This document shows, piece after piece, positions 2,679 through 59,553 of a DNA stretch of 64,000 nucleotides (the first letter of the stretch is position 1; every line of letters begins with the position of its first letter). Position numbers and translations under genes: made by a program. Location of the stretch: positions 121,272,001 to 121,336,000 of the forward strand of contig OZ024740.1 in NCBI GenBank assembly GCA_964016885.1, read 5' to 3'. Source of the DNA: Eledone cirrhosa (Eukaryota). The notes below the pieces were generated by a model. That model saw only the letters and a list, made by a program, of their open reading frames with translations. It had not been told where the DNA came from and did no database searches.

Positions 2679-3548
2679 TAATGAGAGTAATAATAGCATG
2701 AGTTCTGTGTGTGAGTTGGAATCTCAATGTAAATGGCTGTAACGTGTCAGTTCTTACATATTGATATTAGTATGTCATGTGTATGTTGGTTGTTGTGAGT
2801 TCATTTAGCATCTTATTGTGTTGTAAGCAATATTTTCAATATTTATCAACTATTTTTTTTAGGAATTCTGTATGGTATGAACATATTATTCTCCAATACC
2901 TTCCATACTGCGTTAGTTTTGCAATGTATGGTGTAGAGTGTTACACTATGTATTTTGTATGAGTACAGGTTAAGCTTGTCAGAGACCATGAAGTGAGAAG
3001 AAAGAAAAGAGAAAACAACTAAATCGTAAGAATTACATCTGCATCGACGACAATGTAAACAATGCGAGACAGGCAAAATTGTTCAACCCCAACATACTTC
3101 AGTAAAGAAAAAAAACCTCCTTATCTCGTTTTGTTTCATCGTTTCCCTTTGTCTTATTTCTTCCGTTATTTACCTCACCTCATTTTCTTGCCCGAATTAT
3201 ACTATGTCCTCTTTCCGTCACTCATTTTCTGCATTATTACATTACTATATCCTCACTTTCTGTTGTCTTCCTATTTCAATCTTATATATATATATAGGAA
3301 CGCGTAGGACCCCGCAGAAACACCCACACACATAACATCTCCCCAAAATGTACCCCTCCCCAACAACATCAGATAACAGAAACACCCACTCACATAACAG
3401 CTCCCCAATATATATATATGTATATGTAGGAGGTGAGTTTTATTGTAGCACAATAAAGCAATGCAAATATCGGATAAGTAGCACTCAACATTTATAGGAC
3501 TGGAGTATAAATAATATAAGATCAAAAGATGGTTAAAAGAGTTCCATG

Positions 3549-3619
3549 TATTTTATTATGCGCATTTCAAAAACAAATATCACCATGGGATGATATTTGC
3601 GTTCTCATCAGATAAAATA
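3549..3619 (-). ncRNA. Type I hammerhead ribozyme
   Basis: TATTTTAT-CTGATGA-stem II (CAAATATCA/TGATATTTG)-GAAA-TGCGCA-TA-ATAAAATA; 8-bp stem I, palindromic stem III. Confidence 0.85.
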
Positions 3620-5216
3620 GGGAGACATGATATGAAGCTTAAAAAACACTTGCGAGCAGTGAAGTGTTAATTCTACATATGAAAAAAAAAGATGGGTATT
3701 TGAGATTGGGAAAAAAGAAGGAAGGGGGAAGGAAAAGGTAAGGAAGAGGAAGAAAGAAAATAAAGGATGACGGGGGAGAAGTATAAGAAGGAAGGATGAG
3801 AGAGGAGGAGAAATGAGTGAGAGAGAGAGAGAAATAAATGTCCTCTTAATAACCAATGTCTTGATAAAATTTGGTGTATGAATGTAAGGTTATATAACTG
3901 GTACTATTTCTTTTACCTATTTTGGTTCCACTTCCACTTTCTTTAAGGCAAGATTTTATAATCACAATTCGTCTTTTAAATACCAACTTAAAAGAACTAA
4001 CACGGCACTCTCAGAACTCATATGGTCCTTAAAAGACAACAATATTAACTACAACATTTCTTGAAGGAAGGTTAGCAACGCCTCTCCTTACCGGAATTCT
4101 TCCCTATCCAGAACATGTAATCTCTGCCTAGCCGAGAAATTTACCATATCTCTAATTTTAATTCTATAATAAATAGACGTACAGATTTATTTTCGCTCTC
4201 CTTGCATAAATCCCATAGAACTTTCCATAAAGTATACAGCTAATATCTCACCACCTAATTAGTTTAACATCTTTTTTCTCATACGCTTTTATATCTTTTA
4301 CACATATACCCATCTTTCTACCTTATTTCAGTATATTATATTATACAAATTACTCATTCTATGTCGTTAGCGGACCCCTTTTTTTTTCTTTTTTATACTT
4401 TTTTCCTTTTTTCCTTTTTTCTTTTTTAATTTCTAATCTTTAATCTGTAACTTTTACTTCTAAATTACTTCTTAACTCATATTATTACTCACTATAGCAT
4501 TTTCCTTATATTCTTGGCCATACAAACTATATTTTTAATAAATACTAATATTACCACTAGTAAATTTTGTAAACATATATTTTTTTGACGTTATATATTT
4601 TTTCTTCCTTAAATTTTCTTCTTTCTTCTCTCCTTCCGTGCTCGTATTAAACCTATTATTTACTTTTTCATATTACAATAAATAGAAACAAACTTAGACC
4701 CTAACTAATTACTCTAAGTTCATAATTCATTAAATCTCTTCTTCATTCAACTTATCTCCTTAATATTTTTATTTTAATAATACATATTAATAAATTACTT
4801 TTCGCACATATTATTAAACCCTTCAATATATAAACCTTAAATAAATACTATTCTTAATTCCTTTTTCCTTAATCATAAACATCTCCATTCATAAACCTCA
4901 TTAACTTTTAATTTCAATTTTTTTTTAGTTTATGTATTATCTTACAACGGTTTTTTTAATTTCTCTCTGTGAGACAGTGTTTCTCAGTATTAAAGGCTAT
5001 CTCTTTCTCTCTCACACTCATTTCTCCTTCTCTCTCATCCTTCCTTCTTATACTCCTCTCCCGTCATACTTTAATTTCTTTCTTCCTCTTCGTTACCCCC
5101 CCCCCCCCCTTCCTTCTTTTCTCCGAATCTCATATATCCATCTTCTTTTTTTTTCATATGTAGATTTAACACTTCACTGCTCGCAAGTGTTTTTTAAGCT
5201 TCATATCATGTCTCAC

Positions 5217-5287
5217 TATTTTATCTGACGAGAACGCAAATATCATCCCATGATGATATTTGTTTTTGAAATGCGCATAATAAAATA
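5217..5287 (+). ncRNA. Type I hammerhead ribozyme
   Basis: TATTTTAT-CTGACGA-36-nt stem II-GAAA-TGCGCA-TA-ATAAAATA. Confidence 0.85.
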
Positions 5288-5325
5288 CATCGAACTCTTT
5301 TAACCATCTTTTGATCTTATATATT

Positions 5326-5377
<52 letters not shown>

Positions 5378-5654
5378 GAATAGAATGAAGCGAAATTTCA
5401 TTTCTCCATCTTAGTACGGCACTTACTTAAATGTAAGTATGTATGTATGTATACGTACATACATATATGTATACAGACGTACAGTAGTATGTATATATAT
5501 ACATACATGCACACATATATATATGCACGTATCGGTTTACCGAACATTTATTATAATGCTCGGTTTGTTTGTTTGTAAACAAACAGACAGCCCGAATTAC
5601 GCCGTACAGTGTTTAGGCAACCACGTCATCTTTTTGTTCAACACTGACACAGGA

Positions 5655-5697
5655 ACGATGTACTAGTTTCAAGCTTATTAGCTATCGTCAGCATCGT
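5655..5697 (-). ncRNA. Minimal type I hammerhead ribozyme
   Basis: Reverse complement of the 6215-6257 motif. Confidence 0.9.
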
Positions 5698-6214
5698 GTA
5701 CCTTCCTGCCAGATGGTTGAACGTCTGAAAGTATATACTTTCCTTATGCATATTAAAGGCTGAGCAGCCTAATTTGCATATCGAGTGAGTTCAGTCGGCC
5801 GGGCACATCGTTCTTGTGTCAGTGTTGAACGAAAAGGTGACGTGATTGCCTAAACACTGTATGGCGTAATTCGGGCTGTTTGTTTGTTTACAAACAAACA
5901 TACCGAGCATTATAATAAATGTTCGGTAAACCGATACGTGCATATATATATGTGTGCATGTATGTACATATATACATACTACTGTACGTCTGTATACATA
6001 TATGTATGTACGTATACATACATACAAACTTACATTTAAGTAAGTGCCGTACTAAGAGAGAGAAATGAAATTTCGTTTCATTCTATTCCATTTATCGTTT
6101 TCGGTGTGCCCGGCCGACTGAACTCACCCGATATCCAAATTAGGCTGCTCAGCCGTTAATATGCATAAGGAAAGTATATACTTTCAGACGTTCAACCATC
6201 TGGCAGGAAGTTAT

Positions 6215-6257
6215 ACGATGCTGACGATAGCTAATAAGCTTGAAACTAGTACATCGT
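6215..6257 (+). ncRNA. Minimal type I hammerhead ribozyme
   Basis: ACGATG-CTGACGA-T-AGCT-AATA-AGCT-T-GAAA-CTAG-TA^CATCGT; 6-bp stem I, palindromic ACTAGT stem III. Confidence 0.9.
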
Positions 6258-6465
6258 TCCTGTGTCAGTGTTTAACAAAAAGGTGACGTGGTTGCCTAAA
6301 CACTGTACGGCGTAATTCGGACTGTTTGTTTGTTTACAAACAAACAAACCGAGCATTATAATAAATGTTCGATAAACTGATACGTGCATATATATATGTC
6401 TGCATGTATGTATATATATATACCTACTACTGTACGTCTGTATACATATATGTATGTACGTATAC

Positions 6466-6501
<36 letters not shown>

Positions 6502-6773
6502 CATATATATATATATATATATATACATGACAAAGAAAATGTGCTAATAAACCAGGTGGGCCATAACGCACCGGAGTACTCGATACTTAGGTTAGCTGTC
6601 GAGACGGCCGGAACTCAGCCGTCGGTTTCCTGACGATTTTCCTATACATATATATATATACATATATAGCTCATGGGTAAAGAAGAAGACAAACACGGAT
6701 GACAATTACAAGAAGAAAGACTGGCTAAACTATCTTACTAACTGTCTTTCATAAGGCAACTGTACATTTTAAT

Positions 6774-10680: not shown

Positions 10681-10744
10681 TAATAACTTGTGTGTTACAC
10701 CTCTATTCTTTTAACTATATATATATATATATATATATATAAAG

Positions 10745-11416
10745 TATATATACGTACATACATATATATATACAGACGTACAGTAGTATGTATATATATA
10801 TATATATACACACATGCACACATATATATATGCACGTATGGATTCAGCAAACATTTATTATAATGCTCGGTGTGTTTGTAAACAAACATCCCGTATCAAG
10901 CCGTAGTGTCTAGCAACCACCGTTGCTCGTTTGTTCAACACTGACAAAGGAACGCTGTACTAGTCTCAAGCTTGTTAGCTATCGTCATCAACGTATACCT
11001 TCCTGCCAGATAGCTGAACGTCCGAATGTATATACTTTCCTTATGCATATTAACGACTGAGTAGCCCAATTTGCATATCTAGTGGATTAATCGGCCGGGT
11101 GTACAGAAAACGATAAACGGAAAAAAAAAAACGAAATTTCATTTCCCACTCTTAGTACGGCTGTTACTTAAATATAAGTATGTATACGTACATACATATA
11201 TGTATACAGACATACAGTAGTACGTATATATATATATACATGCACACATATATATATGTACGTATGGATTCACCAAACATTTATTATAATGATCGGTGTG
11301 TTTGTAAACAAAGATCCCGTATCAAGCCGTAGTTGCTAGCAACCACCGTTGCTCGTTTGTTCAACACTCATAAAGGAACGCTGTACTAGTTTCAAGCTTG
11401 TTAGCTATCGTCAGCT
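10745..11416 (-). mobile_element. Diverged second locus of the retrozyme-like family, about 1.5 monomers, 426-nt period
   Basis: Homologous to 5378-6470; HHR motifs at 10952-10994 (core mutated) and 11378-11415 (core intact, stem I truncated). Confidence 0.8.
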
Positions 11417-11455
11417 GTATGTATATATCCTCAGAGACAGAAAATTACTGTAAAC

Positions 11456-11564: not shown

Positions 11565-11885
11565 TTCAAAATATTAATAAATAAAAATGTTCTAATAATC
11601 AGAATATATATTTTATTATAAATATTTCAAAGGTACAATTGTGCTTAAGTACGTTTTCATCAGACAATATATATAAGATTTGATATGCGACATATCGCTA
11701 CGGTTTTGATTATTCAATTCCAATAGTGGCATGGAATAATCAAAACCGTAGCGGTATATGGCATATCAAATTTTATATTTTGTCTGATGAAACGTACATA
11801 AACACCATTGCACCTTTGAAATATGTATAACAAAATATATATTCTGATTATGAGAATATTTTTCATTTATTAATATTTTTAATAA
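11565..11885. repeat. About 150-bp inverted repeat with an HHR in each arm
   Basis: + strand 11775-11838: ATATTTTGT-CTGATGA-stem II-GAAA-TATGTA-TA-ACAAAATAT (9-bp stem I); mirror copy at 11608-11670 on - strand; abuts (TA)n. Confidence 0.8.
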
Positions 11886-25275: not shown

Positions 25276-27710
25276 CTAGCAGTGGTACCCGGTGTTGCAC
25301 GGGAGAATGTACTTTGGAACGTGGGCCGCCGACAGACCTAATCGTGGAAAAACTGCATGCCTCGACAATATGTAAAAAAAATAAACCGAATACCCTCATG
25401 GCTGGATAATCTTTGAGATTTTCCTCGATGAGGCAGGACAAATGCAGGTTTTCACCTAATGCGGACCCTAGGGCACGAAGAAAATGAATTTTTTTTATGT
25501 GCATAAAATGCCTTGAAATTTCGGGAAAATCGGCTAGACGTAACCCCTACAAAAAGCCCCCAAAAGCTAAAAAAATGAAGTTTTTCACCTAATGCGGGCC
25601 CTAGGCCGTAAAGAAATTAGGGTTTTCTTTGCTCACGGTATGAAGAAGAGACTGACTAATACATAGTTATAATTCCAAGGAAATCGGTCTGATGTAATGC
25701 CTAAAAATGACACAAAAAGCTGAAAAAAACGCAGTTTTTCACCTAATGCGGGCTCTATGGGATCAAAAAAATGAATTTTTTATGTGCATAATACTCCCTC
25801 AAACATAACGCGGGTTGCCAACAGACCTAATCGTGGGAAAAGTGCATTCCTGGACAATATGTAAAGAAAATAAACCGAACACTCTCATGCAATAACTATT
25901 AGGTATGCTTCTCCTTCCACGGGCAGAAAATCGGTTGGTGCTTTTGTACTTTAATAAAGTTGAATGAGTCAGCACGACAGATGTCACCACTTATGTCATT
26001 AGGAAGTCTGCACTCCTTGAGCAACGCATGACGTGCAATCGGACAGGCTTCTCGAAGGAGTCCACCGCACCTTAGTAAGTAAACGCAACTGGACAAACGT
26101 TTACCAAACTGTGGATATAATTTAACAAGTTTAAAGAGGATGGTGCAATAAAATGGGACCCAAGGCGTGTGCGCGTTCACTCGCCTCCTAAACGAAAGGG
26201 TCGCCATCAGCTATTTCAAGGGCTCTTAAAAGGGCCGTGTAAGCCGTTCACTGACACCCCAGTATGGAGGGGTAACCATCAACAATTTCAAGTGGTAGCC
26301 CTAAAAAGGGCCATATGAGTTTTACTTGTAGCCTTAATAGTAACTTTGAGTGCGTTCTCTGACATTTGAAGGAGGATGTTACGGTTGCTTCCACTGGTAG
26401 CCTTTAGAATGAATCAGAAAGCGTTCGCGGTCCGTTTAACAGCCATATAATGACGCGCCGAGTGCGAAGCGCAAGGTCCATCTCTGAAGGTAGTCACCTG
26501 AAGCCGAGGGAAAATGTATTTCAGGTAATAGGCCGTATGAATGGCAACCAGATTGCCTTAAGAAATGTTGATAACGAACCTACCTCGTCCTTGTGCAAAT
26601 GCAAGAAGACTCTCCCAGCTACCAACTCTAGAGCACCCAACAAACAACGATCCGCTTAACGACCTTACATTGCAGCACTAATTGTCAATGGGAAGGTTCT
26701 TAGCTGAAGGGTTCACCTTAAACCGTAGAAAAAACGCATTTCAGTTAGTAGCCCGTACGAATTGCGACCAGATTGGTTTAAGAAATGGCAATAATGAACC
26801 TACCTTGTCGCTGTTACATTTATAACACCTCGTTGTGAACAATGTTCCTTGTTTTCCCTCGTCGTGCAAATGCAAACAGCCTCTCCCTGCTGCCAACTCT
26901 AGTGCACCCAACGTACAATTGTCTGTGGGAGAAGCAGGGCTCCTCCAGTAGAAGTCCGGCCACAGAAAGAGTCTGACCATGGGACTTGTTAATGGAATGG
27001 CAAAACTGACCAGAAGCGGGAATTACAGTCTTCTGAAGGTAATCGGAATTTCGTCTGCCGAGGGAGTAAGAGGAATTCTCGGAATGAAGACATCGTCACC
27101 TTTTCTACACCCAGAGAGGATTGTTGCCTCGATAACATGGTCCGTCATTTTCCTTACAGCCAGGCGTGTTCCGTTGCACAGCCTCGGTGACTCCAAATTA
27201 GTCAGCAACATAACAGGAGTCCCTACTTTAAAGCGTAACATGTGGGGCGGTAGTCCTGGAGGCTGTAAGGAGTTTAGGAATTCTGGTGGAAAGTTCACCA
27301 CTTCATTTGGATCGGGTATCGTGTCAACAGACTTGTAGTTGCGAAGCGTACCAGGAAGGGAATCCAGTAGCAAGTCGTTGAAATTGTTAATAGTGGCGTT
27401 TTTGGGGGCAAGCACTGCTCTTTCGCGAATAACCGGAGGCAGCAGACAGCCAGACATACAGACATATATTATAAGGGCGCGACGTTATATGTATGTATCT
27501 ATCTAAAAAGAGAAAGACTAAGAATTATAGTGAGAGATCGCTCAATCGCCTAATGTGGTCCCTAGGGCATGGAACATTGTAAGGTTTTTTTGCTCAGACC
27601 ACTCCCTGAAACATAAGTATTACATGTGTAAAGTTTGAAAACAGTCGGTTGGATGCTTCTGGAATTTCAGGCATTCAAATTCACACACACACACACACAG
27701 ACAGACATCC
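25276..27710 (-). mobile_element. Non-autonomous Helitron with Pif1-like helicase fragment (about 26970-27430)
   Basis: 3' hairpin CCCGTGCAACACCGGG followed by CTAG|T; PPEFLNSL..GLPPH..KVGTPVMLL.NL..LCNGTRL..IPRIPL; internal CCTAATGCGG subrepeats. Confidence 0.85.
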
Positions 27711-27986: not shown

Positions 27987-28381
27987 GTTTTCCAGAGGGG
28001 ATGGGGTGAATGTTATCTGTCGGATAGGTGCGATACGTGTCCTCCGCTGTTCGTTGTTTTGAATATCTGAGGTATCCAACAGAGTGCGCACGCGTGTGAA
28101 ATGGGGTCGGTCAAGCAGCGATCGGCAGCCGAAATAGTTCTTTAATTGTGGGAGTGGGGTGGCGTTAGCTGTCAATCGATTGTATTATCTGCCCGTACTG
28201 GTTTCTGTATTAGCAGTGTTGAATAGTGTATGGTGGTGGTAGTATTGCCTGCCTGTTTGGTTATTTCTACTGTGTGTGTGTGTGCGTGTGTTGTTGTCTG
28301 GCTTGTGTGTGTGTGTGTGTGCGTGTGTTGGTGCCTCGTTTGTCAGTATTAGGCGTGTAGTATATTCGTATGGTGGAATGC

Positions 28382-28430
<49 letters not shown>

Positions 28431-30360
28431 CGTGCGTGTGTTTTGTCTCGTTTGTTTATTTAAACCAACCTCCTCTCTCGGATCGGTTATCTATTTGTGG
28501 CCCTAGGCGTTTGATCGAAAGTGCGTCCTTGATTCGTATTGTACCGACGTTTGGTTCCGTCGTTAGAACTGTGATAGTGGGCCTTCCGTCTTTGTTTCCA
28601 CATTTGGTTATGTGTTTCCGGAAAGACGAGGCCCTGGTGTTGATGTGCTCCTTGATCCGGATGTGTAGCGGCCGGATTGTGCTACCTATATAGCAGTGGT
28701 TGCACTGGTTACATTCTACATTATACACTACGTATGTGTGTAGGCAACAGTTCGTATGGCTCATCGGGCAGTTGCTGAGGGAGCACGCATGAATCGATTT
28801 CCCGGGTTTCCTTGAGAGGCATCTTCGCAGGGAGAGGCCCGAGTGGGCCCGGTGGTTGTCGAGGCCCTCCCTCCGTATAGTCTTGCGCATAACGTTTATG
28901 GTATTCTCGCCCAGGTGTGGTATTTTAAGGAAGCACTTGCCTTGGGTGTTTCTCTGCCTCTTGCGTCTGGTGTCTCTTATTCTGTTTGTGAGTGAAGCAG
29001 GGTACCCTTTCGTCTCCAGCACTTTGAGGAATCGCTTCGTATGGGTGACACCACTCGCGGGATCGCTGCATCGGTTTTTAATTCGCGTGATCTCGTTCGT
29101 GATGTACCCTCTTTTAGCACTCTTAAGGACTTTGGACTTGTAGTGGATGAACAGGTCCCTGCAGGCTGCCTTGCGGTAGAAGTTGGAGTGGATCCCTCCC
29201 TGTTCCGTGATATTGATTCGGAAGTCAAGCAGGGCAAGTGACCCTACGTCGCTTGGATGTTCAACACTAAAATCAATGTTCTCGTCCGTGTGGATTAGAC
29301 GCGTTCCATCAGTATATTAACGGCCGGGAGTGCCGGGACTGGACCGTGGTGTAAAGAGCGACTACATCAAGGCTGAAGGCTTACACTGCTTCGGGCTCAC
29401 CACCACTGACATTCACCAACTCCTATCCATCGTCGTTGACAACACATACTTCGGATTTCTCGACCAAACATACCAGCAAACCTCGGGACTACCCATGGGA
29501 TCAAGCCAGTCGGGTGTACTAGCGATCTCGTACAAGGACAGCCTCGAGCGCAAGGCCGTCAACACCTGACACCCCAACGCCGTCGCCTTTTTCTCAAGGT
29601 ACGTGGACGATATCCTCATCCTCACATCTTCCCAAGAGATGGCGAACAGAATCTATGAGACGTTCAACACGGACGAGAACATTAATTTCAGTGTTGAACA
29701 CCGCAGCGACGACGGGTCACTTGCCCTCCTCGACTTCCAAATCAACATCACGGAACAGGGAGGGATCCACTCCAACTTCTACCGCGAGGCAGCCTGCAGG
29801 GACCTTTTCGTCCACTACGTGTCGGCCCTCCCCAACAGTGCTAAAAGAGGTTACATCAAGAACGAGATCACGCAAATTAAAAACAGATGCAGCGATCCCG
29901 CGAGTGGTGTCACACATACGAAGCGATTCCTCAAAGTGCTGTAGACGAAAGTGTACCCTGCCTCACTCACAAACAGAATAAGAGACACCAGACTCAAGAG
30001 GCAGAGAAATACCCAAGGCAAGTGCTTCCTTAAAATACCATACCTGCGCGAGAATACCACCAACGCTATCCGCAAGGATATACGGAGGGAGGGCCTCGAC
30101 ATCCACCTGATCCACTTGGGCCCCTCCCTGCGAAGATGCCTCTCCAGGAAACCCGGGAAATCGACTGACGCGTGCTCCCTCAGCAACTGCCCGATGCGCC
30201 ATACAAACTGTTGCTTACGCACATACGTCGTGTATAAGGTAGAATGTAACAAGTGCAACCACTACTATATAGGTAACACAATCCGTCCGCTACACTTCTG
30301 GATCAGGGAGAACATCAACACAAGAGCCTCGTCTTTCCGGAAACACATAACCAAATGCGG

Positions 30361-30426
<66 letters not shown>

Positions 30427-30445
30427 ACACCCACCCACACACACA

Positions 30446-30491
<46 letters not shown>

Positions 30492-30848
30492 AGCATTCCG
30501 CCATAGGAATATACTACACTGCTAATACAGACAAGCGAGACAACAACACACGCACACACACACACACAGTAGCATTCACCAAACAGGCAGGCAATACTAC
30601 CACCACCACACACTATTCAACACTGCTAATACAGAAACCAGTACGGGCAGATAATACAATGGATTGACAGCTAACGCCACCCTACTCCCACAATTAAAAG
30701 AACTATTTCGGCCGCCGATCTCTGCTTTATCGACCCCATTTCAGCGCGTGCGCGCTCTGCTGAATACCTTATATATTCAAAACAACGAACAGCGAGGACG
30801 CGTACGGATCTATCCGACAGATAAACCTTTCCCCCACCCCCGAAAAAC

Positions 30849-41400: not shown

Positions 41401-44400
41401 CTGACACACAGCCTGGTATGTTTCATATTCCACACCATTGATAGTTTTCAAATCAGAGAAGCTCTCTTTACCTCTCGAAAAATCATTATGCCACAAAATT
41501 CGGAGATAAAACACATCACCAGATGCAGGATGGACATTACAAACATGAATCTCAACTTTTGTTTTCAATCATTCCATTTCTTTCCCGTCTTATCCCAAGT
41601 ATAGTACGAAGGGAAATCGCAGTAGAGTTGCCTTTGATCCGGGTTCAATGCATGTTCACTATTGTGCTGGAACCACTCAATCAATTCCGTCTTTGGAGGT
41701 GGTACGTTAGCAATTCTTTCGACACATCTTCTAGTGTCCTGAAAACAGACCATTTGCCTATTCTCTAAGTGAACCATCAGTTTCTGAACGCTGGGTTTGG
41801 GTTCATTGACATCAAAATCGAACAATGTCCAGCAAGCTTCGCTAGATCCAATCGAGCTAACATGCTGGAACCTGCCAACTTCATCTCCTTGGTTCGCCTC
41901 CTCATTCCTGACATTGATCATTGCCCGACCATGACCTTTGTATAGATATTTGAATAGATATTTGCAAGCTTTCACTGAGCTACGCATTTCCACATTAATA
42001 TGACAACGATATTTCATAATCAAATATGGATTGTATGGCACAACCCATTGATTTGTAACCTGTCGACTGTTTACATTTTCGACCAAACCGCCATCTGCAG
42101 GCGACCGTCTTCTGTATGAGGGATGAACATCCCCATCGTTCCAGGAAGAGTTCGTGACAAAAGATGCACGGAAAGTGCTTGCTGCATTGGCCATTTTTCA
42201 TGCAATGCGCTTTCCGATTTGCCACTCCGCATTGGTTGTGCACCATTGACTTTGCCACCACATTGCGTAGTGCCACATTCTCCGGCAGTTCAGCATACAC
42301 AACGCCGTCGACATCCTCAGCACATCCCAATTTGCAATCTCTATGTAAAATCATCAGCAAATGTGCATGTGGCAATCCTCTTTTTGGGAATTCAATTACG
42401 TATGTAAAAGCAACTATAGCTCCAAAGATTACCTCTTTTTCCACATCATCCATTATCTTTTTAAGATATACTTTCAATACTCTTGCCATCATATCAGAAT
42501 GGCCGTTGTCCTGGCAAAAGTGCATCCTTAATATCAGTCCATTCAGGATTGCATGTAACCGTTATAAACAAATCCGGCTTTCCAAACTTTCTCACAATAG
42601 CCATTGCATCCTGATAGCGACGATGGCAAAATGATGCGTCGACCAATTTGCTTGTAATTGGCATCATCGGCTGTTATCGCATCCTGTATATTATTATACA
42701 ATTCAGCTCTGATATGTTGCTGATGTGTAGCTATATAATTTGGCCTTTGATTTCCGATCTTTGCGAATGCCATACAACAGTATTCCTGGAACAGTCTGCT
42801 GGCTTGAAATAGCGGATTTCTCTGTTGATTCCTCTCGTTCAAATGGAACGCGTAAAAATCGCGAATCGAATTATTGTGTCTATTGCCGCCTCCCTGTTGA
42901 TGCTGATTCTCATGATCATCTAAATGAACAGACATGTTCCATCAATTTCCACCTTTTCGGAATAAAAGAACATAATGCAATGGATCGTATGCCTTATTTG
43001 ACTCATTTATAGTCTTGAGACCACCATCTCTGCGATTGAGGTCGAAATCTATCGATTCAGGCTTATCGTCCATCAACACAGCAACTTCACGAAATCCTTC
43101 AGGGGCATTATATCGCCGTTCGTGTTGATTCCTAGGCACTGCGTCAGCCTTAATCACCAATGTTTGCTGCTGAATATTTTGCAGTTCAGCCACCAACATG
43201 AAATCCATAACATAAGGATTACACTGTCTAAGTCATGATTGTAAATTACGGATCAAATCACTTAACCTTTGCCGTTCAAATTTAGTTATATTTCCCGGCA
43301 ACTTCATCCAACTGATCCTGCTATCCTCCTCCGATTCACTATAATCTGGATCGTTAACATAAATTTGAGAGAATTGAGACCTCTCTCCTGGGGTAACTTC
43401 TAAATTATCGATACAATGATACAAACGGCCTTGATTGACTACATTCGGTGCCCATGCCCCACTCTCAAACATCTCACTACTCTCTGCGATGCTAAAGCTA
43501 ATGAATTGATAATTTGCCGCGAATACTTGCGTAGTAATCTACCTCGGTATCCTTGATCAACCCACATACATAATATTTTAAACTCCGGTGATTCCTCATC
43601 ATCCGGCATTCGCAAGGGTTCTAGTTGAACTGCTCCTTTATGACAGCACATTGTGGTCCACATCTTTTCGTGCCTCCAAAGCAATGCTCCACAATGTAGA
43701 CACTCTGCTCGTCCACCAATCTCAAAATGACACGGTTGCCATGATCCATTTTTAATATCATCCGTTCGCCTTCTAGCCTTTATTGGAATGAGGAGCACTT
43801 TGGCGACACATTCTCTGGACTTCTGTATTGTGCTGGCACCATTCAGCCAGCTCCTCTTCATCCATCGCAGCACCCCGTTGTTGCTGAATTCCGACCATCT
43901 GCTGATGATGATAAGCCAGTTAGTCTTCAACCATCGCAGCACGCCGTCACTGCTTGGCTCCAGTGTTTCGTTGGCGTTGTTCAGCCAGGTCCTCTTCATT
44001 CATGGCAGCACGTCTTCGCCTCTGAAGTTCGGCGTTCCGATGGCGCCGTTCGGCCCGTTTTTCTTCATTCTTGGCTGCACGCCGTCGCCGCTGTAGTTCA
44101 CTGTTTGATAAAGTCGAATTGCTTTTATTATCAGTATTCATTTCGAGCAATTGTCAAAAAATGTCCGTCAATGTAAAGAAAGGTCTCTATTTACTCCCTT
44201 TACAACTCTGTGTATGTTAGACTGACAGACATGCACACAGACAGATAAACTGCATGGCGATTGTGGAACGCCCCACGTACACACACACATACACGCATGG
44301 AAACGCGCACAGGCACGCAAACTTACACACGCACCCGTGCACTTACGCATACGCACACAATCACACATGTTGATAGTTTTAACTTTCTATGGAACGCTGC

Positions 44401-47806: not shown

Positions 47807-47933
47807 TTAGTTAAGCAAAACAAGACCACAAATTTCACAAGGAAGACATTATTAAAAGATTGTCAACATATTTAGTTTGATGTAAGGAATGTAGAGAATA
47901 ATAATTATAATAATATTAATAATAATAATGCCC

Positions 47934-48054
47934 GTTTACAATTGTTTCGCTACTCCGTAAAATATTTCTGGATCAGATGACTATATATCATAATTGATCT
48001 GGTTCATTTGAAAATAATTAACATATTTAAAAAAACAGAGTGGTTCATCGGAAC
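47934..48054 (-). ncRNA. HHR with ~96-nt stem II (mirror copy)
   Basis: Reverse complement of 49775-49895. Confidence 0.6.
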
Positions 48055-49774
48055 TCAAAGGAATATAAATTAAAATAATGTTACATAATATAATGTTCCA
48101 TATATTAGTTTTTACTATGGTGCCTTTGTTTCATCAGCTGTCAGCCATAATCAAGCAGTACTCACCTATCGAGGCTGCATTGTGTGAGATCTGCCTATGG
48201 GTAACAAGTTGGCTGCCAAGGGGCATATTATCCTTACTAATTAGAGGGTGGTTTCAGGGGAAGTAACTTCTCGAGAGATTAGAGATTGTGTGTATTTTAT
48301 AGTTATGTGCTAGTGTTTAAATTATTTAATTGAGAGACAATGTAGGGGAGGTAACTTATAATTATCGAGTTGTTCATAGCAATTTAACTTATTAGCTACA
48401 ATTAGAGATGGGGCTACATGACTAAGTTGGGTCAAAAACTCTATTGGCGAAGGAATTAGCCCTTCGATGTTGAAAGCTAATTGTTACCTCCGTTCTATCG
48501 TTAATTGGTAGAGGTCTAGATAGAGTTATGTAATATGCTTCCGTAACACAGAGATCACAAATTTCCTTCGTCCATTGAACGGTTGTGCCCTAGCTACGAT
48601 ATCCCATATTAGTGAGTGTTGAACTTTGTTTAATTTAAGGTTTTTAATGAGCCTAGCTAGCGATGTCGAACATCTGTTGCTAGGGTCTCGGAAGGAAAAA
48701 GAGTGCGCGTTATAGCGTACCTTAAAAGGGTTAGAGGTAGACCCGATATAATAGCTGGTATTCGAAGCAGTCTCAACTGTGCACCTACAGACTATGTTGG
48801 GTATCAGGCAGTGTCCATTTAATGGGCATGCATTGGGGTACCGGTAGTTGCAGTTGCTTCTGCAGTTAGTGAGAGTAGGGTTATTTAACCTAAGCAGTTG
48901 GTTCGTGCTAGAAGGATTAGAACGGACCAACATCTTAGGTTAAATAACCCTATTCTCACTAACCGCAGAAGCAACTGCAACTGTCGGTACCCCAATGCAT
49001 GCCCATTAAATGGACACTGCCTGACACCCAACATAGTCTATAGGTGCACAGTTGAGACTGCTTCGAATACTAGCTATTATATCGGGTCTATTTCTAACCC
49101 TTTTAAGGTACGCTATAACGCGCACTCTTTTTCCTTCCGAGACCCTAGCAACAGATGTTCGACATTGCTAGCTAGGCTCATTAAAAACCTTAAATTAAAC
49201 AAAGTTCAACACTCACTAAATTGGGATATCGTAGCTAGGGCACAACCGTTCAATGGACGAAGGAAATCTTGTGATCTCTGTGTTACGGAAGCATATTACA
49301 AAACTCTATCTAGACCTCTACCAATTAAAGATAGAATGGAGGTAACAATTAGCTGTCAACATCGAAGGGCTAATTCCTTCGCCAATAGAGTTGTTGACCC
49401 AACTTAGTCATGTAGCCCCATCTCCAATTGTAGCTAATAAGTTAAATTGCTATGAACAACTCGATAATTATAAGTTACCTCCCCTACATTGTCTCTCAAT
49501 TAAATAATTTAAATACTAGCACATAACTATAAAATACACACAATCTCTAATCTCTCGAGAAGTTACTTCCCCTGAAACCACACTCTAATTAGTAAGGTAA
49601 ATATGCCCTTTGGCAGCCATCTTGTTACCCATAGGCAGATCTCACATAATGCAGCCTCGACAGATGAGTACTGCTTGATTATGGCTGACAGCTGATGAAA
49701 CAAAGGCACCATAGTAAAAACTAATATATGGAACATTATATTATGTAACATTATTTTTATTTATATTCCTTTGA

Positions 49775-49895
49775 GTTCCGATGAGCCACTCTGTTTTTTT
49801 AAATATGTTAATTATTTTCAACTGAACCGGATCAATTATGATACATAGTCATCTGATCCAGAAATATTATACGGAGTAGCGAAACAATTGTAAAC
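49775..49895 (+). ncRNA. HHR with CCGAUGA core and 96-nt stem II
   Basis: GTT-CCGATGA-GCCACTCTGT..ACGGAGTAGC-GAAA-CAATTG-TA-AAC; inner GGATCA/TGATCC hairpin. Confidence 0.7.
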
Positions 49896-50267
49896 GGGCA
49901 TTATTATTATTAATATTATTATAATTATTATTCTCTACATTCCTTACATCAAACAAAGTATGTTGACAATCTTTTAATAATGTCTTGTGAAATTTGTGGT
50001 TTTGTTTTGCTTAACTAATGAATATTTCCAGCTCTGCGCACCTAACCTCTGCATGAACCCATCCACCTAGCTGCTTTCTACTGCATATTGCATATTGAGC
50101 ACATGCCTTTACGCTTTGGCTTCTAACTAACTCACCTATCTTTCCTCTCATATCTCCTCTACTATCTCAATCTCTCTCTTTAAGATTGGTTACTCTTGAA
50201 GTGTGTATATATATATATATATATAACATTGCTTTATTGTACTACAATAAAACTCACCTCCTACATT

Positions 50268-54519: not shown

Positions 54520-54719
54520 CGCATACATTCATATTCACTTATATATATATATATATATAGAATTAGATAATTTGTATTCCAATGTTACTAAGTAGTTGCA
54601 TTGGATGGAGTCAACTGACGTCAGAGATTGCTCAACGTATAATAAAGTGTGTTTTAAAATCCGGAGAAAATATGGAGAAAAAATTTACGAAATGGAAATG
54701 CGGGTATATAGAATTTATT

Positions 54720-54836
54720 AGGTAACAATTGTTTCTATAGTGTATGAGTTACCTATACCTCGCTATTTGAATAATACACAAATATTATCAAAAACCGAAA
54801 GTACACTGTAAGCCAACACACCATGTCATCAGACCT
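54720..54836 (-). ncRNA. HHR with 90-nt stem II
   Basis: AGGT-CTGATGA-90 nt-GAAA-CAATTG-TT-ACCT. Confidence 0.72.
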
Positions 54837-55245
54837 TTGTATTAGAATGATATGAAAATATTTTATACACTAGATAAAAGATAAAGAAGGAGGTAGGAAG
54901 AGAAGGGGAAGAGGGAAGTGAGTAAGGTGGAGGGAGTCTTAGGGTTTAAGACTGTCAGACTAGTAGAGATTGTGAAGAGAGAATGTTTTGGCAGCAGTTA
55001 GCTTAATGAGGCGTGCTAAGGTTGGCTGGGAAGTAGATACTTCTAGTGGTGTTGTTCGGACAAAATTTAGTTACAGGGGCCAAGTGGTACAATGTCACAG
55101 ACAAGTTATTAGGGCTATTATAGAAGCAGGTTATTTCTAAAGGGGTCCAGAAAAACAGTGTTTAGTACTATTATTATAGAAAGCCATATCTAGTGTATAA
55201 ACATATAAGACAGAAATTTGCAAACGTTGGTGTAAAAAGGTAACA

Positions 55246-57513
55246 TTATATGCATTTAAAAAAAGAAAAAGTCGTTTTCAAACGATGGTTACAGTATAGA
55301 GAACGTTCAATTTTGCTGTTCAAAAGTTTGTTTACCGACGTTAAAATGCAGTATATCTCTAAATTGCATAACTTGTAGAATCGATGATTTTGCTGATATG
55401 CAGGCGCAGCTGCAATAATTTGCCAATCAAGGGAGAACGCTTGATTGTTCCTCCGAAGCTGCCAGGCTTTATCGGCGAGGGTTGTTACGGAGCGCATTTT
55501 CTCGTGCCTGATCGAAGATCGATGTTGGTATAGGCGAGCCTTGAAAGAAGTTGCGGTACATCCGACGTAATACCATTTGTTGGTCCCGGAATTTATTGTA
55601 CACCGGTAGACAATATTGCGTGCTAGGCACTGGTTATTCAGTGGGCACGTACCTGGTTTGGTGCAGTTACAACTATTTTTATGTTTTGCAGTAGAATCCT
55701 GGATAGTTTGGTGGGGTTGCGGTTGTGTGTTAGTGCGTTGCATGTTGCTATGCTGGTGCCCTGAGTCATTAGGGATGTACTTATTCAGTATTGCTGAGTT
55801 GAGTTTTCTAATTAGTTGTTCTATGTTAGGTGCAGTGGAGTATGAGAGTCTAATGGTGCGCGAGTTAAAGATTTTATAGTATTTATGTGAAGTTGTAAAG
55901 TGTTTATTGATTAGTGTATAGAATTGTGAGATAATCTTAGTGCTAATAGAAGAATTGTACACGGGGTTATACCATATGTACTCTCTACGTCTGACTCTAT
56001 TTGCTGGTTTGCACCTGTTAGTATGCCTATTGATGTGTGTGTGTGGTGCAATACTAGTTCGACTTAGATGTGTTTTATTCATAGTACTTATGTGGTTATC
56101 GTCTAGATATTCAATTTTCTCGCAGTAACCAGCTTTTCTAAGTGCGTCATTATAATATTCAGCATGCTTGTTGAAGGTCTGCAAATTAGACGACAGTCGG
56201 GAGATCCTTATGGATATATTTTTAGGGATAGATTTAATAATGGAATGAGGATGGTTCGATTTTACATTAACGTACTTAAGATTTTCATTAAGTTTGTGAA
56301 ATGGCTCTATATTACCGTTATTAAGGTTGAAGGTAACATCCAAGAAGTTGACCACCTTAAGATTGTGTTCAAAGGTAATATTAAGCCCTAGTTCTAAGAA
56401 AAGTTTCCTAATGTTTTTACGTCGCCTTTCTAGGTTTTGTTTGTTCATATTCTTGACTAATAGAAGTGTATCGTCGCGGTATATTCCGCCGTGGAGGTCC
56501 GTAAATTCGCTCTGGAGTCTATGGGCTATATAGATCCCAACCAAATCCGTGACCTCCGCCGAATCATTAGAACCCATCGTAATGTCGAATTCCGAGGGTC
56601 TATCCCTGCGAACCCAATAACTATTTTCAAAGTGCACTACTGTGCGTCTAGCTTCAAGTATAATATTAATTTCCTCGTTTGTGAGGTCCGAGTTAGTCTT
56701 AGCGAAAGAGAGGGCCTTATGCAGGGTTTCGGGTGAAATAAAGGAATAGTATTCATCTATATCGAATTGAATAAAATAAGATTTGTTTTTGTCCCTAATG
56801 TTATTGAACCATCTTATTGCCTGATGAGTATTATCCCATAATTTAATATCTACCTTAGCCTTAACTTGGGGGATAATACGATCTAATATGTACTTACTAA
56901 TCTTACCTATATCGGACTTTGAAGGACATATTAATCTAATTTTAGGGTTAGTATCGAAGTTATCCTTATGGTCCTTCAGATTAAAAGTCGGTGTAGCTGG
57001 GGATAGGGGTACCGTTCTGTCGTCAATTTTCAGTTTCCTAACAATATCACATGCTGCGTTATTAATGTTGGTTAGTGTAGTTGCGTTTGTTTTTTTGTAT
57101 TTCCTATGTAATTCCTTACGTATCAAATTGTTATATGTTTCTACATCCAGGGTGTATAGATTCGAAGTTTTGTCTGCCTTTATGATAATTCCTTTGGTAT
57201 TCCTTAGGTTGTTGAGTAGAGTTTTAATATCTCGTTGCAGTTCGTTTTTCCTTCCATTTGTAAATTTGATTCCGGTTATCATTTTCATTAAGTCCTGTTC
57301 GAAAGAATCCAAAAGAGGGTTAGAGGGTGGGTTTTTGTAGGATTTGAAACCAAACTTCTCGTTGTTGGTGTCCGAAGTTTGTGTAATCCTTTTCCGATCG
57401 AAGTGGAAGGCCTTCCATCTAATCCGCCGAATAAATTCGTTGGTCCTTTGTATCATACCAAGAATGTAATCCTTTTTACCCTGAATGGGTATGTTTTTTA
57501 AGGAATACCACAA
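55246..57513 (-). CDS. PLE reverse transcriptase + C-terminal GIY-YIG endonuclease (755 aa open frame)
   Basis: FIQFDI, ITMGS.DSAE, GIYRDD and VNFLDVT RT motifs; CNCTKPGTCPL linker; NIVYRC..YYVGCT..FKARLYQH endonuclease; likely true ATG at 57527 is 1 nt out of frame. Confidence 0.93.
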   Translation of the reverse strand: MWYSLKNIPIQGKKDYILGMIQRTNEFIRRIRWKAFHFDRKRITQTSDTNNEKFGFKSYKNPPSNPLLDSFEQDLMKMITGIKFTNGRKNELQRDIKTLLNNLRNTKGIIIKADKTSNLYTLDVETYNNLIRKELHRKYKKTNATTLTNINNAACDIVRKLKIDDRTVPLSPATPTFNLKDHKDNFDTNPKIRLICPSKSDIGKISKYILDRIIPQVKAKVDIKLWDNTHQAIRWFNNIRDKNKSYFIQFDIDEYYSFISPETLHKALSFAKTNSDLTNEEINIILEARRTVVHFENSYWVRRDRPSEFDITMGSNDSAEVTDLVGIYIAHRLQSEFTDLHGGIYRDDTLLLVKNMNKQNLERRRKNIRKLFLELGLNITFEHNLKVVNFLDVTFNLNNGNIEPFHKLNENLKYVNVKSNHPHSIIKSIPKNISIRISRLSSNLQTFNKHAEYYNDALRKAGYCEKIEYLDDNHISTMNKTHLSRTSIAPHTHINRHTNRCKPANRVRRREYIWYNPVYNSSISTKIISQFYTLINKHFTTSHKYYKIFNSRTIRLSYSTAPNIEQLIRKLNSAILNKYIPNDSGHQHSNMQRTNTQPQPHQTIQDSTAKHKNSCNCTKPGTCPLNNQCLARNIVYRCTINSGTNKWYYVGCTATSFKARLYQHRSSIRHEKMRSVTTLADKAWQLRRNNQAFSLDWQIIAAAPAYQQNHRFYKLCNLEIYCILTSVNKLLNSKIERSLYCNHRLKTTFSFFKCI

Positions 57514-57734
57514 TGATGTTTTTCCATTTCAAAGACGCGGGTTGATAGGTTGCTCGACTGTAAAGGAGTGTGAAGAATTAGATAATTTGTATTCCAATGT
57601 TACTAAGTAGTTGCATTGGATGGAGTCAACTGACGTCAGAGATTGCTCAACGTATAATAAAGTGTGTTTTAAAATCCGGAGAAAATATGGAGAAAAAATT
57701 TACGAAATGGAAATGCGGGTATATAGAATTTATT

Positions 57735-57851
57735 AGGTAACAATTGTTTCTATAGTGTATGAGTTACCTATACCTCGCTATTTGAATAATACACAAATAT
57801 TATCAAAAACCGAAAGTATTCTGTAAGCCAACACACCATGTCATCAGACCT
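57735..57851 (-). ncRNA. HHR with 90-nt stem II (upstream pLTR)
   Basis: Direct copy of 54720-54836. Confidence 0.72.
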
Positions 57852-59348
57852 TTGTATTAGAATGATATGAAAATATTTTATACACTAGATAAAAGATAAA
57901 GAAGGAGGTAGGAAGAGAAGGGGAAGAGAGAAGTGAGTAAGGTGGAAGGAGTCTTAGGGTTTAAGACTGTCAGACTAGTTGAGATTGTGAAGAGAGAATG
58001 TTTTGGCAGCAGTTAGCTTAATGAGGCGTGCTAAGTTTGGCTGGGAAGTAGATACTTCTAGTGGTGTTGTTCGGACAAAATTTAGTTAGAGGGGTCAAAG
58101 TGGTACAATGTCACAGACAAGTTATTAGGGCTATTATAGTAGCAGGTTATTTCTAAAGGGGTCCAGAAAAACAGTGTTTAGTACTATTATTATAGAAAGC
58201 CATATCTAGTGTATAAACATATAAGACAGAAATTTGCAAACGTTGGTGTAAAAAGGTAACATTATATGCATTTAAAAAAAGAAAAAGTCGTTTTCAAACG
58301 ATGGTTACAGTATAGAGAACGTTCAATTTTGCTGTTCAAAAGTTTGTTTACCGACGTTAAAATGCAGTATATCTCTAAATTGCATAACTTGGAGAATCGA
58401 TGATTTTGCTGATATGCAGGCGCAGTTGCAATAATTTGCCAATCAAGGGAGAACGCTTGATTGTTCCTCCGAAGCTGCCAGGCTTTATCGGCGAGGGTTG
58501 TTACGGAGCGCATTTTCTCGTGCCAAACCAGGTACGTGCCCACTGAATAACCAGTGCCTAGCACGCAATATTGTCTACCGGTGTACAATAAATTCCGGGA
58601 CCAACAAATGGTATTACGTCGGATGTACCGCAACTTCTTTCAAGGCTCGCCTATACCAACATCGATCTTCGATCAGGCACGAGAAAATGCGCTCCGTAAC
58701 AACCCTCGCCGATAAAGCCTGGCAGCTTCGGAGGAACAATCAAGCGTTCTCCCTTGATTGGCAAATTATTTCAGCTGCGCCTGCATATCAGCAAAATCAT
58801 CAATTCTGCAAGTCATGCAATTTAGAGATATACTGCATTTTAACGTCGGTAAACAAACTTTTGAACAGCAAAATTGAACGTTCTCCATACTGTAACCATC
58901 GTTTGAAAACGACTTTTTCTTTTTTTAAATGCATATAATGTTACCTTTTTACACCAACGTTTGCAAATTTCTGTCTTATATGTTTATACACTAGATATGG
59001 CTTTCTATAATAATAGTACTAAACACTGTTTTTCTGGACCCCTTTAGAAATAACCTGCTACTATAATAGCCCTAATAACTTGTCTGTGACATCGTACCAC
59101 TTTGACCCCTCTAACTAAATTTTGTCCGAACAACACCACTAGAAGTATCTACTTTCCAGCCAAACTTAGCACGCCTCATTAAGCTAACTGCTGCCAAAAC
59201 ATTCTCTCTTCACAATCTCTACTAGTCTGACAGTCTTAAACCCTAAGACTCCCTCCACCTTACTCACTTCCCTCTTCCCCTTCTCTTCCTACCTCCTTCT
59301 TTATCTTTTATCTAGTGTATAAAATATTTGCATATCATTCTAATACAA

Positions 59349-59465
59349 AGGTCTGATGACATGGTGTGTTGGCTTACGGCGTACTTTCGGTTTTTGATAA
59401 TATTTGTGTATTATTCAAATAGCGAGGTATAGGTAACTCATACACTATAGAAACAATTGTTACCT
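59349..59465 (+). ncRNA. HHR with 90-nt stem II (inverted pLTR)
   Basis: AGGT-CTGATGA-C-ATGGTGTG..TACACTAT-A-GAAA-CAATTG-TT-ACCT. Confidence 0.72.
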
Positions 59466-59511
59466 AATAAATTCTATATACCCGCATTTCCATTTCGTAA
59501 ATTTTTTTCTC

Positions 59512-59553
<42 letters not shown>

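Follow-up and report, generated by a model that had tools for sequence, protein, structure and literature searches.

A 446-nt hammerhead repeat of Eledone cirrhosa with Penelope-like insertion ends, probably copied from a circular RNA

The repeat at 5378-6470 of the window, by which we mean the whole 64,000-nt stretch of Eledone cirrhosa contig OZ024740.1 that was analysed, is probably a non-LTR retrozyme. Its template was likely an RNA circle one monomer long, copied into DNA by the enzyme of a Penelope-like element (PLE) acting in trans, and both strands of a (TA)n target would have served as primers. The element has one hammerhead per unit, a short tandem repeat, no coding capacity, no LTR structure and a low GC content, which are the features of a retrozyme. 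With somewhat less assurance, we favor the further view that the A>G marks on some copies are ADAR "bar codes" and amount to fossil proof that the PLE reverse transcriptase (RT) copies the closed, ribozyme-made circle by rolling-circle synthesis, the two nicked (TA)n strands priming at different sites of the same circle. If this is true, a single mechanism would explain why Penelope-like insertions in general have partial tandems, an inverted arm and a tail on one side only.

We number the unit from the base immediately after the predicted cut (u1 = 5806) to the last base before the next one (u446 = 6251). Alignment within the window confirmed a preliminary description, made by reading the sequence, of a 446-nt unit with 1.5 direct copies and one inverted arm, the whole flanked by (TA)n tracts (Table 1). 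The period of the repeat is exactly 446 nt, and the window's ORF list contains no frame of 150 or more amino acids overlapping 5378-6470, in keeping with the description of the repeat as non-coding. The inverted arm had been described as a circularly permuted near-monomer. It does run through the end of the unit into its beginning, but the permutation is not random: on its outer side the arm terminates at u283-290, the long ("tail") start site and the fixed tail end of the family. Because the two arms overlap by 3 nt, the predicted cut site is only one of four possible crossover points between them. The G+C content of the monomer is 34% in the non-CpG, non-microsatellite columns scored, and it folds much more stably than shuffled sequences do (z -8), in part owing to the internal microsatellite hairpin.

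Table 1. Positions in the window of the repeat, its parts and related features
Feature	Position	Strand	Remarks
(TA)n tract, left half of target site	5318..5377	.	AT-rich
Inverted arm	5371/5378..5807	-	u300-446 then u1-283/290; 95-96% identity to direct monomer
Type I hammerhead, inverted arm	5697-5655	-	script descriptor; predicted cut between 5661 and 5660
3-nt microhomology joining both arms	5805..5807	.	overlaps predicted cut site
Full monomer between successive predicted cuts (predicted circle)	5806..6251	+	no ORF
Short reverse-transcription start site, u228-233	6033..6038	+	loop of small hairpin
57-nt "tail" between the two start sites	6039..6095	+	
Long start site, u284-290	6089-6095	+	68 of 211 arms end exactly at u290
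Type I hammerhead, direct arm	6215..6257	+	script descriptor; predicted cut after 6251
Second, partial monomer	6252..~6470	+	93% identity to first; end of short start-site class, then (TA)n
(TA)n/(GA)n tract, right half of target site	6471..6525	.	
Older-subfamily copy	10744..11420	-	~80% identical; 1.5-mer between (TA)n tracts
Young ORF-bearing Penelope-like element	54559-59515		760-aa open frame 55246-57528

A script descriptor recovered the hammerhead that had been proposed for the direct arm, with its predicted cut just before sequence of the kind that begins at 5806. Stem I (6215-6220 paired with 6252-6257) has 6 bp, the first core box lies at 6221-6227, stem II (6229-6240) has 4 bp, and stem III consists of one pair within a 6-nt palindrome. 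Rfam gave no match to a hammerhead family, the only hits being microsatellite-driven miRNA matches below the gathering score. Folding of the unit in circular form predicts stems I and II (pair probabilities 0.6-0.99) but no stem III (0.0). Such an outcome is in accord with Cervera and de la Pena (2014, PMC4209133), who describe motifs of this type as cleaving only as dimers and predict that those with a palindromic helix III function in this way. The hammerhead core is intact in 185 of 233 spans (192 loci). Changes between subfamilies are located at the free core position, in loop II, in the stem I bulge and at one stem I pair that is still paired in its variants (A-U 178, G-U 35, U-G 13). From the motif and its conservation, RNA of the unit is predicted to cleave itself.

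The family is large and mostly dispersed. A 36-mer taken from the unit has 1,656 exact matches in the genome, which sets the family at no fewer than 1,656 copies, and a first-look DNA search returned 2,877 candidates. The 120 loci that were mapped came from the 30 best DNA matches, the first 100 pattern matches (contig C1) and seven further matches; 211 arms at 113 loci were retained after exclusion of six duplicates, one long array and the arms that touch a locus edge. Non-CpG divergence of the copies from the majority sequence is about 2.1%, and older subfamilies, at roughly 80% identity, are also present. Most copies are 0.3- to 2-mers with head-to-head arms, and 31 of the 211 arms are long enough to span at least two hammerheads, spaced at the 446-nt period. 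The array (L070, C1:70054000-70063900) consists of at least 18 full monomers in tandem with a six-monomer higher-order period of ~2,652 bp; it is possibly a source locus or a satellite. Three loci (L112, L146 and L210) carry the same ~200-nt SINE-like repeat inserted at the same AT-rich unit position near u104. A few contigs from two other organisms bear the repeat at 85-97% identity, at low depth and mostly of the older-subfamily type. It also occurs, with loose (TA)n ends behind 6095, in contigs of four runs whose kind is unrecorded, whose strand and ends are not readable and which are possibly not independent.

The 3' ends of the arms are concentrated at two sites: 180 of the 211 arms (113 loci) end at one or the other, so that the permuted ends expected from the preliminary description were not borne out. 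The short class comprises 98 arms that end in u195-246, 38 of them exactly at u233 and the rest blurred by the unit's microsatellite, and the long class comprises 82 arms that end in u279-294, 68 of them exactly at u290. The other 31 arms end elsewhere, mostly as a result of internal rearrangements. The two start sites have the same six terminal bases and are predicted to be unpaired, the first of them in a hairpin loop. An AT-rich period-2 tract adjoins 129 of the 180 fixed ends and none of the 31 others. The 5' ends of the 211 arms, on the other hand, have no fixed boundary.

The two classes of ends are combined nonrandomly. There are 73 head-to-head pairs, joined mostly through an overlap of 1-6 nt; with 20 pairs that include an internal end set aside, 45 of the 53 classifiable pairs consist of one short and one tail end, where 26 would be expected (p ~1e-7). 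This rule constrains how an enzyme dimer uses its template. The ends of the family display the Penelope-like "tail at one end" signature and are those expected of a non-autonomous element mobilised by a PLE. Mobilisation in trans by a PLE-type enzyme, as had been suggested for the window copy, is thus supported by the fixed ends and by the lack of an abutting ORF.

A small number of copies carry clusters of A>G differences that make it possible to follow individual template molecules. Non-majority variants in general are shared 3-5 times more often within loci (0.106 per variant between arms, 0.070 between tandem monomers) than between them (0.020). Locus L089 stood out first for A>G clusters, and five genome-wide patterns, each with multiple A>G changes, gave 4, 7, 3, 10 and 8 matches, for 15 loci in all. 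T>C controls for the patterns with 7 and 10 matches gave 0 and 0, so that only the hammerhead-bearing strand is marked. RNA-to-RNA replication was also considered and rejected: there is no sign of an edited antisense intermediate, the genome-wide control patterns having found no T>C-edited copies. Ordinary copies contain 95 A>G and 65 T>C changes (p 0.07, L089 included), a weak general excess which indicates that the editing marks are confined to rare copies. ADARs avoid sites with a 5' G. Such sites make up 4 of 65 edited positions at four loci, compared to 11 expected (p 0.009).

The marks differ between loci, but within one insertion they are identical in successive monomers and in both arms, with one piece of L210 and the locus L222 as exceptions. 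We define "cross-register" comparisons as those between pieces that, were the RNA linear, would derive from separate monomers. Within single insertions, cross-register comparisons yielded 51 shared and 6 unshared marks (seven pairs at five loci; the pairs are not independent), whereas between loci 830 marks were shared and 6,701 were not, or 11% sharing (766 pairs, 15 loci). For example, one arm of L224 reads 657 nt of the 446-nt unit, and all 14 of its marks recur on the second pass; 13 of the 14 are also present in the opposite arm. At L089 nine of nine marks are shared across registers, at L123 five of five in the tail and two of two between tandem monomers, and at L210 six of seven. Both arms share marks in the same register at L218, L221 and L233, while L209, L223, L225 and L226 are uninformative for the register test. 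An edited monomer that was read more than once, and by both arms, points to a circle or its equivalent as template. Copying from circular RNA by a PLE RT in trans, which the preliminary description had put forward, is therefore likely. The argument for a circle is carried by four of the 15 edited loci, a fifth, L232, having marks in common with L230. In both arms of L224 the ribozyme core is among the edited parts, as is the base that immediately precedes the cut. Since a ribozyme edited in its core could not have cut itself, editing likely came after cleavage and ligation.

The piece of L210 between its two SINE insertions (u104-175) is without two of the edits and has variants of another subfamily (0 shared, 3-4 unshared), and its inclusion changes the cross-register tally to 51 versus 13. 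At L218 (1760-3022) a 70-nt piece of an edited copy (u10-82) is repeated in tandem at least 18 times with one A>G mark kept, and is a minisatellite born from a retrozyme.

It is unlikely, in our judgment, that the family is instead a non-autonomous PLE copied from linear, uncleaved multimers of tandem loci, with the hammerhead dispensable and the identical edits derived from a source copy or from gene conversion. Several facts are consistent with such a process. The anole PLE protein inserts in vitro without hammerhead cleavage, and no RNA reads terminate at the hammerhead cut (Frangieh et al. 2024, PMC11167929); arrays as long as L070 exist; and L230 and L232 have five A>G marks and a subfamily variant in common, which indicates that edits can be inherited through a source copy and that a small lineage may descend from one edited RNA. 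Also, L215 looks like the product of DNA-level conversion or duplication. The arms of L222 are differently edited before the hammerhead (3 shared, 16 unshared), indicating that two molecules can serve one insertion, and some shared variants at the unedited loci L013, L096 and L102 fit a linear register as well as or better than a circular one. However, independent editing of the monomers of a multimer cannot yield the identical marks in the two passes of L224, and a source with identical edited monomers would itself need a monomer-copying step one generation earlier. Genome-wide patterns found no source copy of the L224, L089 or L123 haplotypes, that of L224 occurring only there. Conversion is not general, because overall divergence within loci (0.043-0.046) is not below that between loci (0.041), and the L224 monomers retain private non-edit differences. 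The conservation of the hammerhead core across subfamilies also argues against a dispensable ribozyme. Linear multimers from arrays such as L070 may nonetheless provide a second route.

Less probable still is a linear ribozyme-cut monomer as template, with the enzyme, on reaching the 5' end of the monomer, either stopping or switching to the 3' end of that same RNA; such a switch would also repeat the edits. The junction at 5806 had been interpreted as a ribozyme-cleaved 5' end, since it overlaps the predicted cut, and a pile-up of 5' ends at that position over genomic copies had been proposed as the check. Neither was supported: the breakpoints are dispersed. The number of arms with 5' ends within 3 nt of the cut is 6 of 211 (3.3 expected if uniform), within 10 nt it is 12 of 211 (9.9 expected), and in the pattern-chosen set it is 4 of 155 within 3 nt (2.4 expected). 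Arm coverage rises smoothly over the first cut, with no step, and stops there occur at 0.25 per 100 nt, within the range of the flanking positions (0.17-0.36). Of 17 arms at the second cut back, three stop (the window copy included), compared to 0.54 per 100 nt in the adjoining sequence (131 arms), a weak excess in the direction that a cut template would predict.

A genome-wide test of junctions, in which four non-native upstream bases were required before a 19-nt anchor, produced 41 matches at the cut, 39 at a control position at u411 and 22 at a control at u57; the anchors are about equally frequent in the sample (63, 60 and 58, respectively). On inspection 21 of 30 junctions were genuine at the cut, 24 of 30 at u411 and 13 of 22 at u57, from which we estimate ~29 genuine cut-site junctions genome-wide, twice the number at the u57 control. 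The filter used at u411 is more permissive, with five admissible positions instead of three, and the TA microhomology there is longer. The difference between 41 and 22 has a p of 0.04, and an excess of junctions at the cut of up to two-fold, concerning ~1-2% of copies, is possible. Against a linear monomer, the u411 control has as many junctions as the cut, and sequences are joined precisely across the cut, gaps in the flanking columns being present in only 2-3 of 233 spans. In L210, L224 and L226 editing has reached the final base ahead of the cut, which would be hard to achieve at the terminal base of an RNA. Across the family, junctions coincide with the cut no more often than would be expected from chance together with microhomology, and the junction in the window is likely one of the dispersed stops, overlapping the cut by chance.

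The reading of the unit as only the pLTR-plus-tail of an autonomous PLE, its copies being ordinary 5'-truncated insertions, can hardly be right and is largely refuted for the sampled loci, for although the insertion signature is the same as that of the ORF-bearing element at 54559-59515 and of published PLEs (PMC8557442), a monomer is preceded by another monomer (up to five times in dispersed copies, at least 18 in the array), the 5' ends have no fixed boundary, and at none of 192 loci does an ORF abut the 5' end in sense or a common non-family flank lead to one.

At the loci sampled, PLE coding sequence is found near some copies of the family but not joined to them. PLE ORF fragments abutting the 5' end in sense number 0 of 192 loci, and 22 of the 192 have unrelated PLE fragments nearby. 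Copies of the unit in the window and the 192 loci lack an RT plus GIY-YIG ORF between pLTRs, and an nhmmer search of the window and the masked loci with the non-microsatellite part of the unit detected no homologous pLTR, only leftover family fragments. The element at 54559-59515 is a candidate for the type of helper. It has a 3-kb tandem period, a head-to-head arm, arms that are 98-99% alike, a tail at one end only and (TA)n on both sides, and it is not homologous to the 446-nt unit. Pfam named no family for its 760-aa ORF and gave only a sub-threshold GIY-YIG match for a second fragment; both are presumably Penelope-like, on the basis of motifs read by eye.

Several other elements are present in the window. 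A second PLE family lies directly to the left of the unit, at 3514-3692 (-) and ~3693-5322 (+), with hammerheads at 5217-5287 (+) and ~3611 (-), a GIY-YIG-like remnant at ~3900-4200 and an inverted 179-nt arm; hammerheads of its type turn up again in 13 scans of other loci. Head-to-head Penelope-like insertions that retain coding remnants are also present at 28141-30698 and 47843-49986, and a third hammerhead, with a 10-bp stem I, is found at 11774-11839 (+). Fragments at 27023-27484 and 41565-44100 resemble the helicase and replication-initiator coding regions of Helitrons, as judged from motifs by eye.

These considerations lead us back to the circular template, for which we propose the following sequence of events. 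Tandem copies would be transcribed and the RNA cleaved at one hammerhead after the next, probably by double hammerheads, given that stem III is a single pair inside a palindrome. The monomer would then be ligated to a circle, a step suggested by the retrozymes described in PMC7229834, and since a circle has one hammerhead it would not easily recut. The genomic pattern shows that copying begins, at microsatellite targets, from two fixed sites that are separated by 57 nt and predicted to be unpaired, each DNA strand using one of them. The edited copies show that both cDNAs usually come from one RNA molecule and that more than one pass round it is possible. The cDNAs stop at dispersed positions, and a short microhomology serves to join them head to head.

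Edited copies offer a molecule-level test of the template from genome sequence alone, one that is applicable to any animal with active ADAR and PLEs. The retrozyme class is already known. A literature search of incomplete coverage, with most subscription papers outside it, found in print neither the present family nor any use of edited genomic copies as evidence for a circular template, and no paper describing an octopus hammerhead family. The 446-nt unit, with its two mapped start sites, also provides a minimal substrate for in vitro work.

The closest counterparts are the metazoan non-LTR retrozymes of Cervera and de la Pena (2020, PMC7229834). In the accessible part of that study they likewise consist of an ORF-less short tandem unit of low GC content, with one type I hammerhead per unit, a 6-bp helix I, a 4-bp helix II and a weak palindromic helix III. 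The unit described here is longer (446 nt, compared to 170-400 nt), and the predominance of dispersed 0.3- to 2-mers, the head-to-head joining of arms, the pair of fixed start sites and the use of (TA)n as target are features that the same part of the study does not describe for retrozymes. The words "octopus" and "cephalopod" are absent from its text. A circRNA template was offered there as a hypothesis, and mobilisation by PLEs was proposed. Circles had earlier been proposed as templates for more-than-unit copying in PMC4209133; circle-borne transposition of retrozymes and PLEs is thus proposed in both papers and, within their accessible text, shown in neither. Li, Clavereau and Pollet (2026, bioRxiv 10.64898/2026.07.22.740005) treat animal retrozymes as non-autonomous PLEs, which is the same class with the same proposed helper, and their range of consensus lengths (51-972 bp) includes 446. 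Their evidence, in the sections available, is co-occurrence and pLTR homology in vertebrates, with no analysis of junctions or editing and no mollusc among the main-text taxa. The retrozymes in those sections have a homologous pLTR, whereas none was found here in the window or the masked loci.

Among the PLEs themselves, the EN+ families Penelope/Poseidon, Neptune and Naiad (Craig et al. 2021, PMC8557442) share with the 446-nt unit 5' truncation, partial tandems, an inverted 5'-truncated copy, a tail at one end and microsatellite targets; the unit differs from them in having no RT or GIY-YIG ORF and a tail of 57 nt rather than 30-40. The minimal PLE hammerheads (PMC4209133) are also of type I, with a palindromic helix III and an extra unpaired base on the 5' side of stem II, but their helices (4-5 and 7-8 bp) contrast with the canonical 6 and 4 bp seen here. 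For the full-length PLE protein in vitro, cleavage is dispensable (PMC11167929). The start site of that anole protein is not homologous to the cut DNA, whereas the start sites of the 446-nt unit end in bases that can pair with a nicked (TA)n strand. In both systems, the tail lies between two internal start sites, one of which is in a stem-loop.
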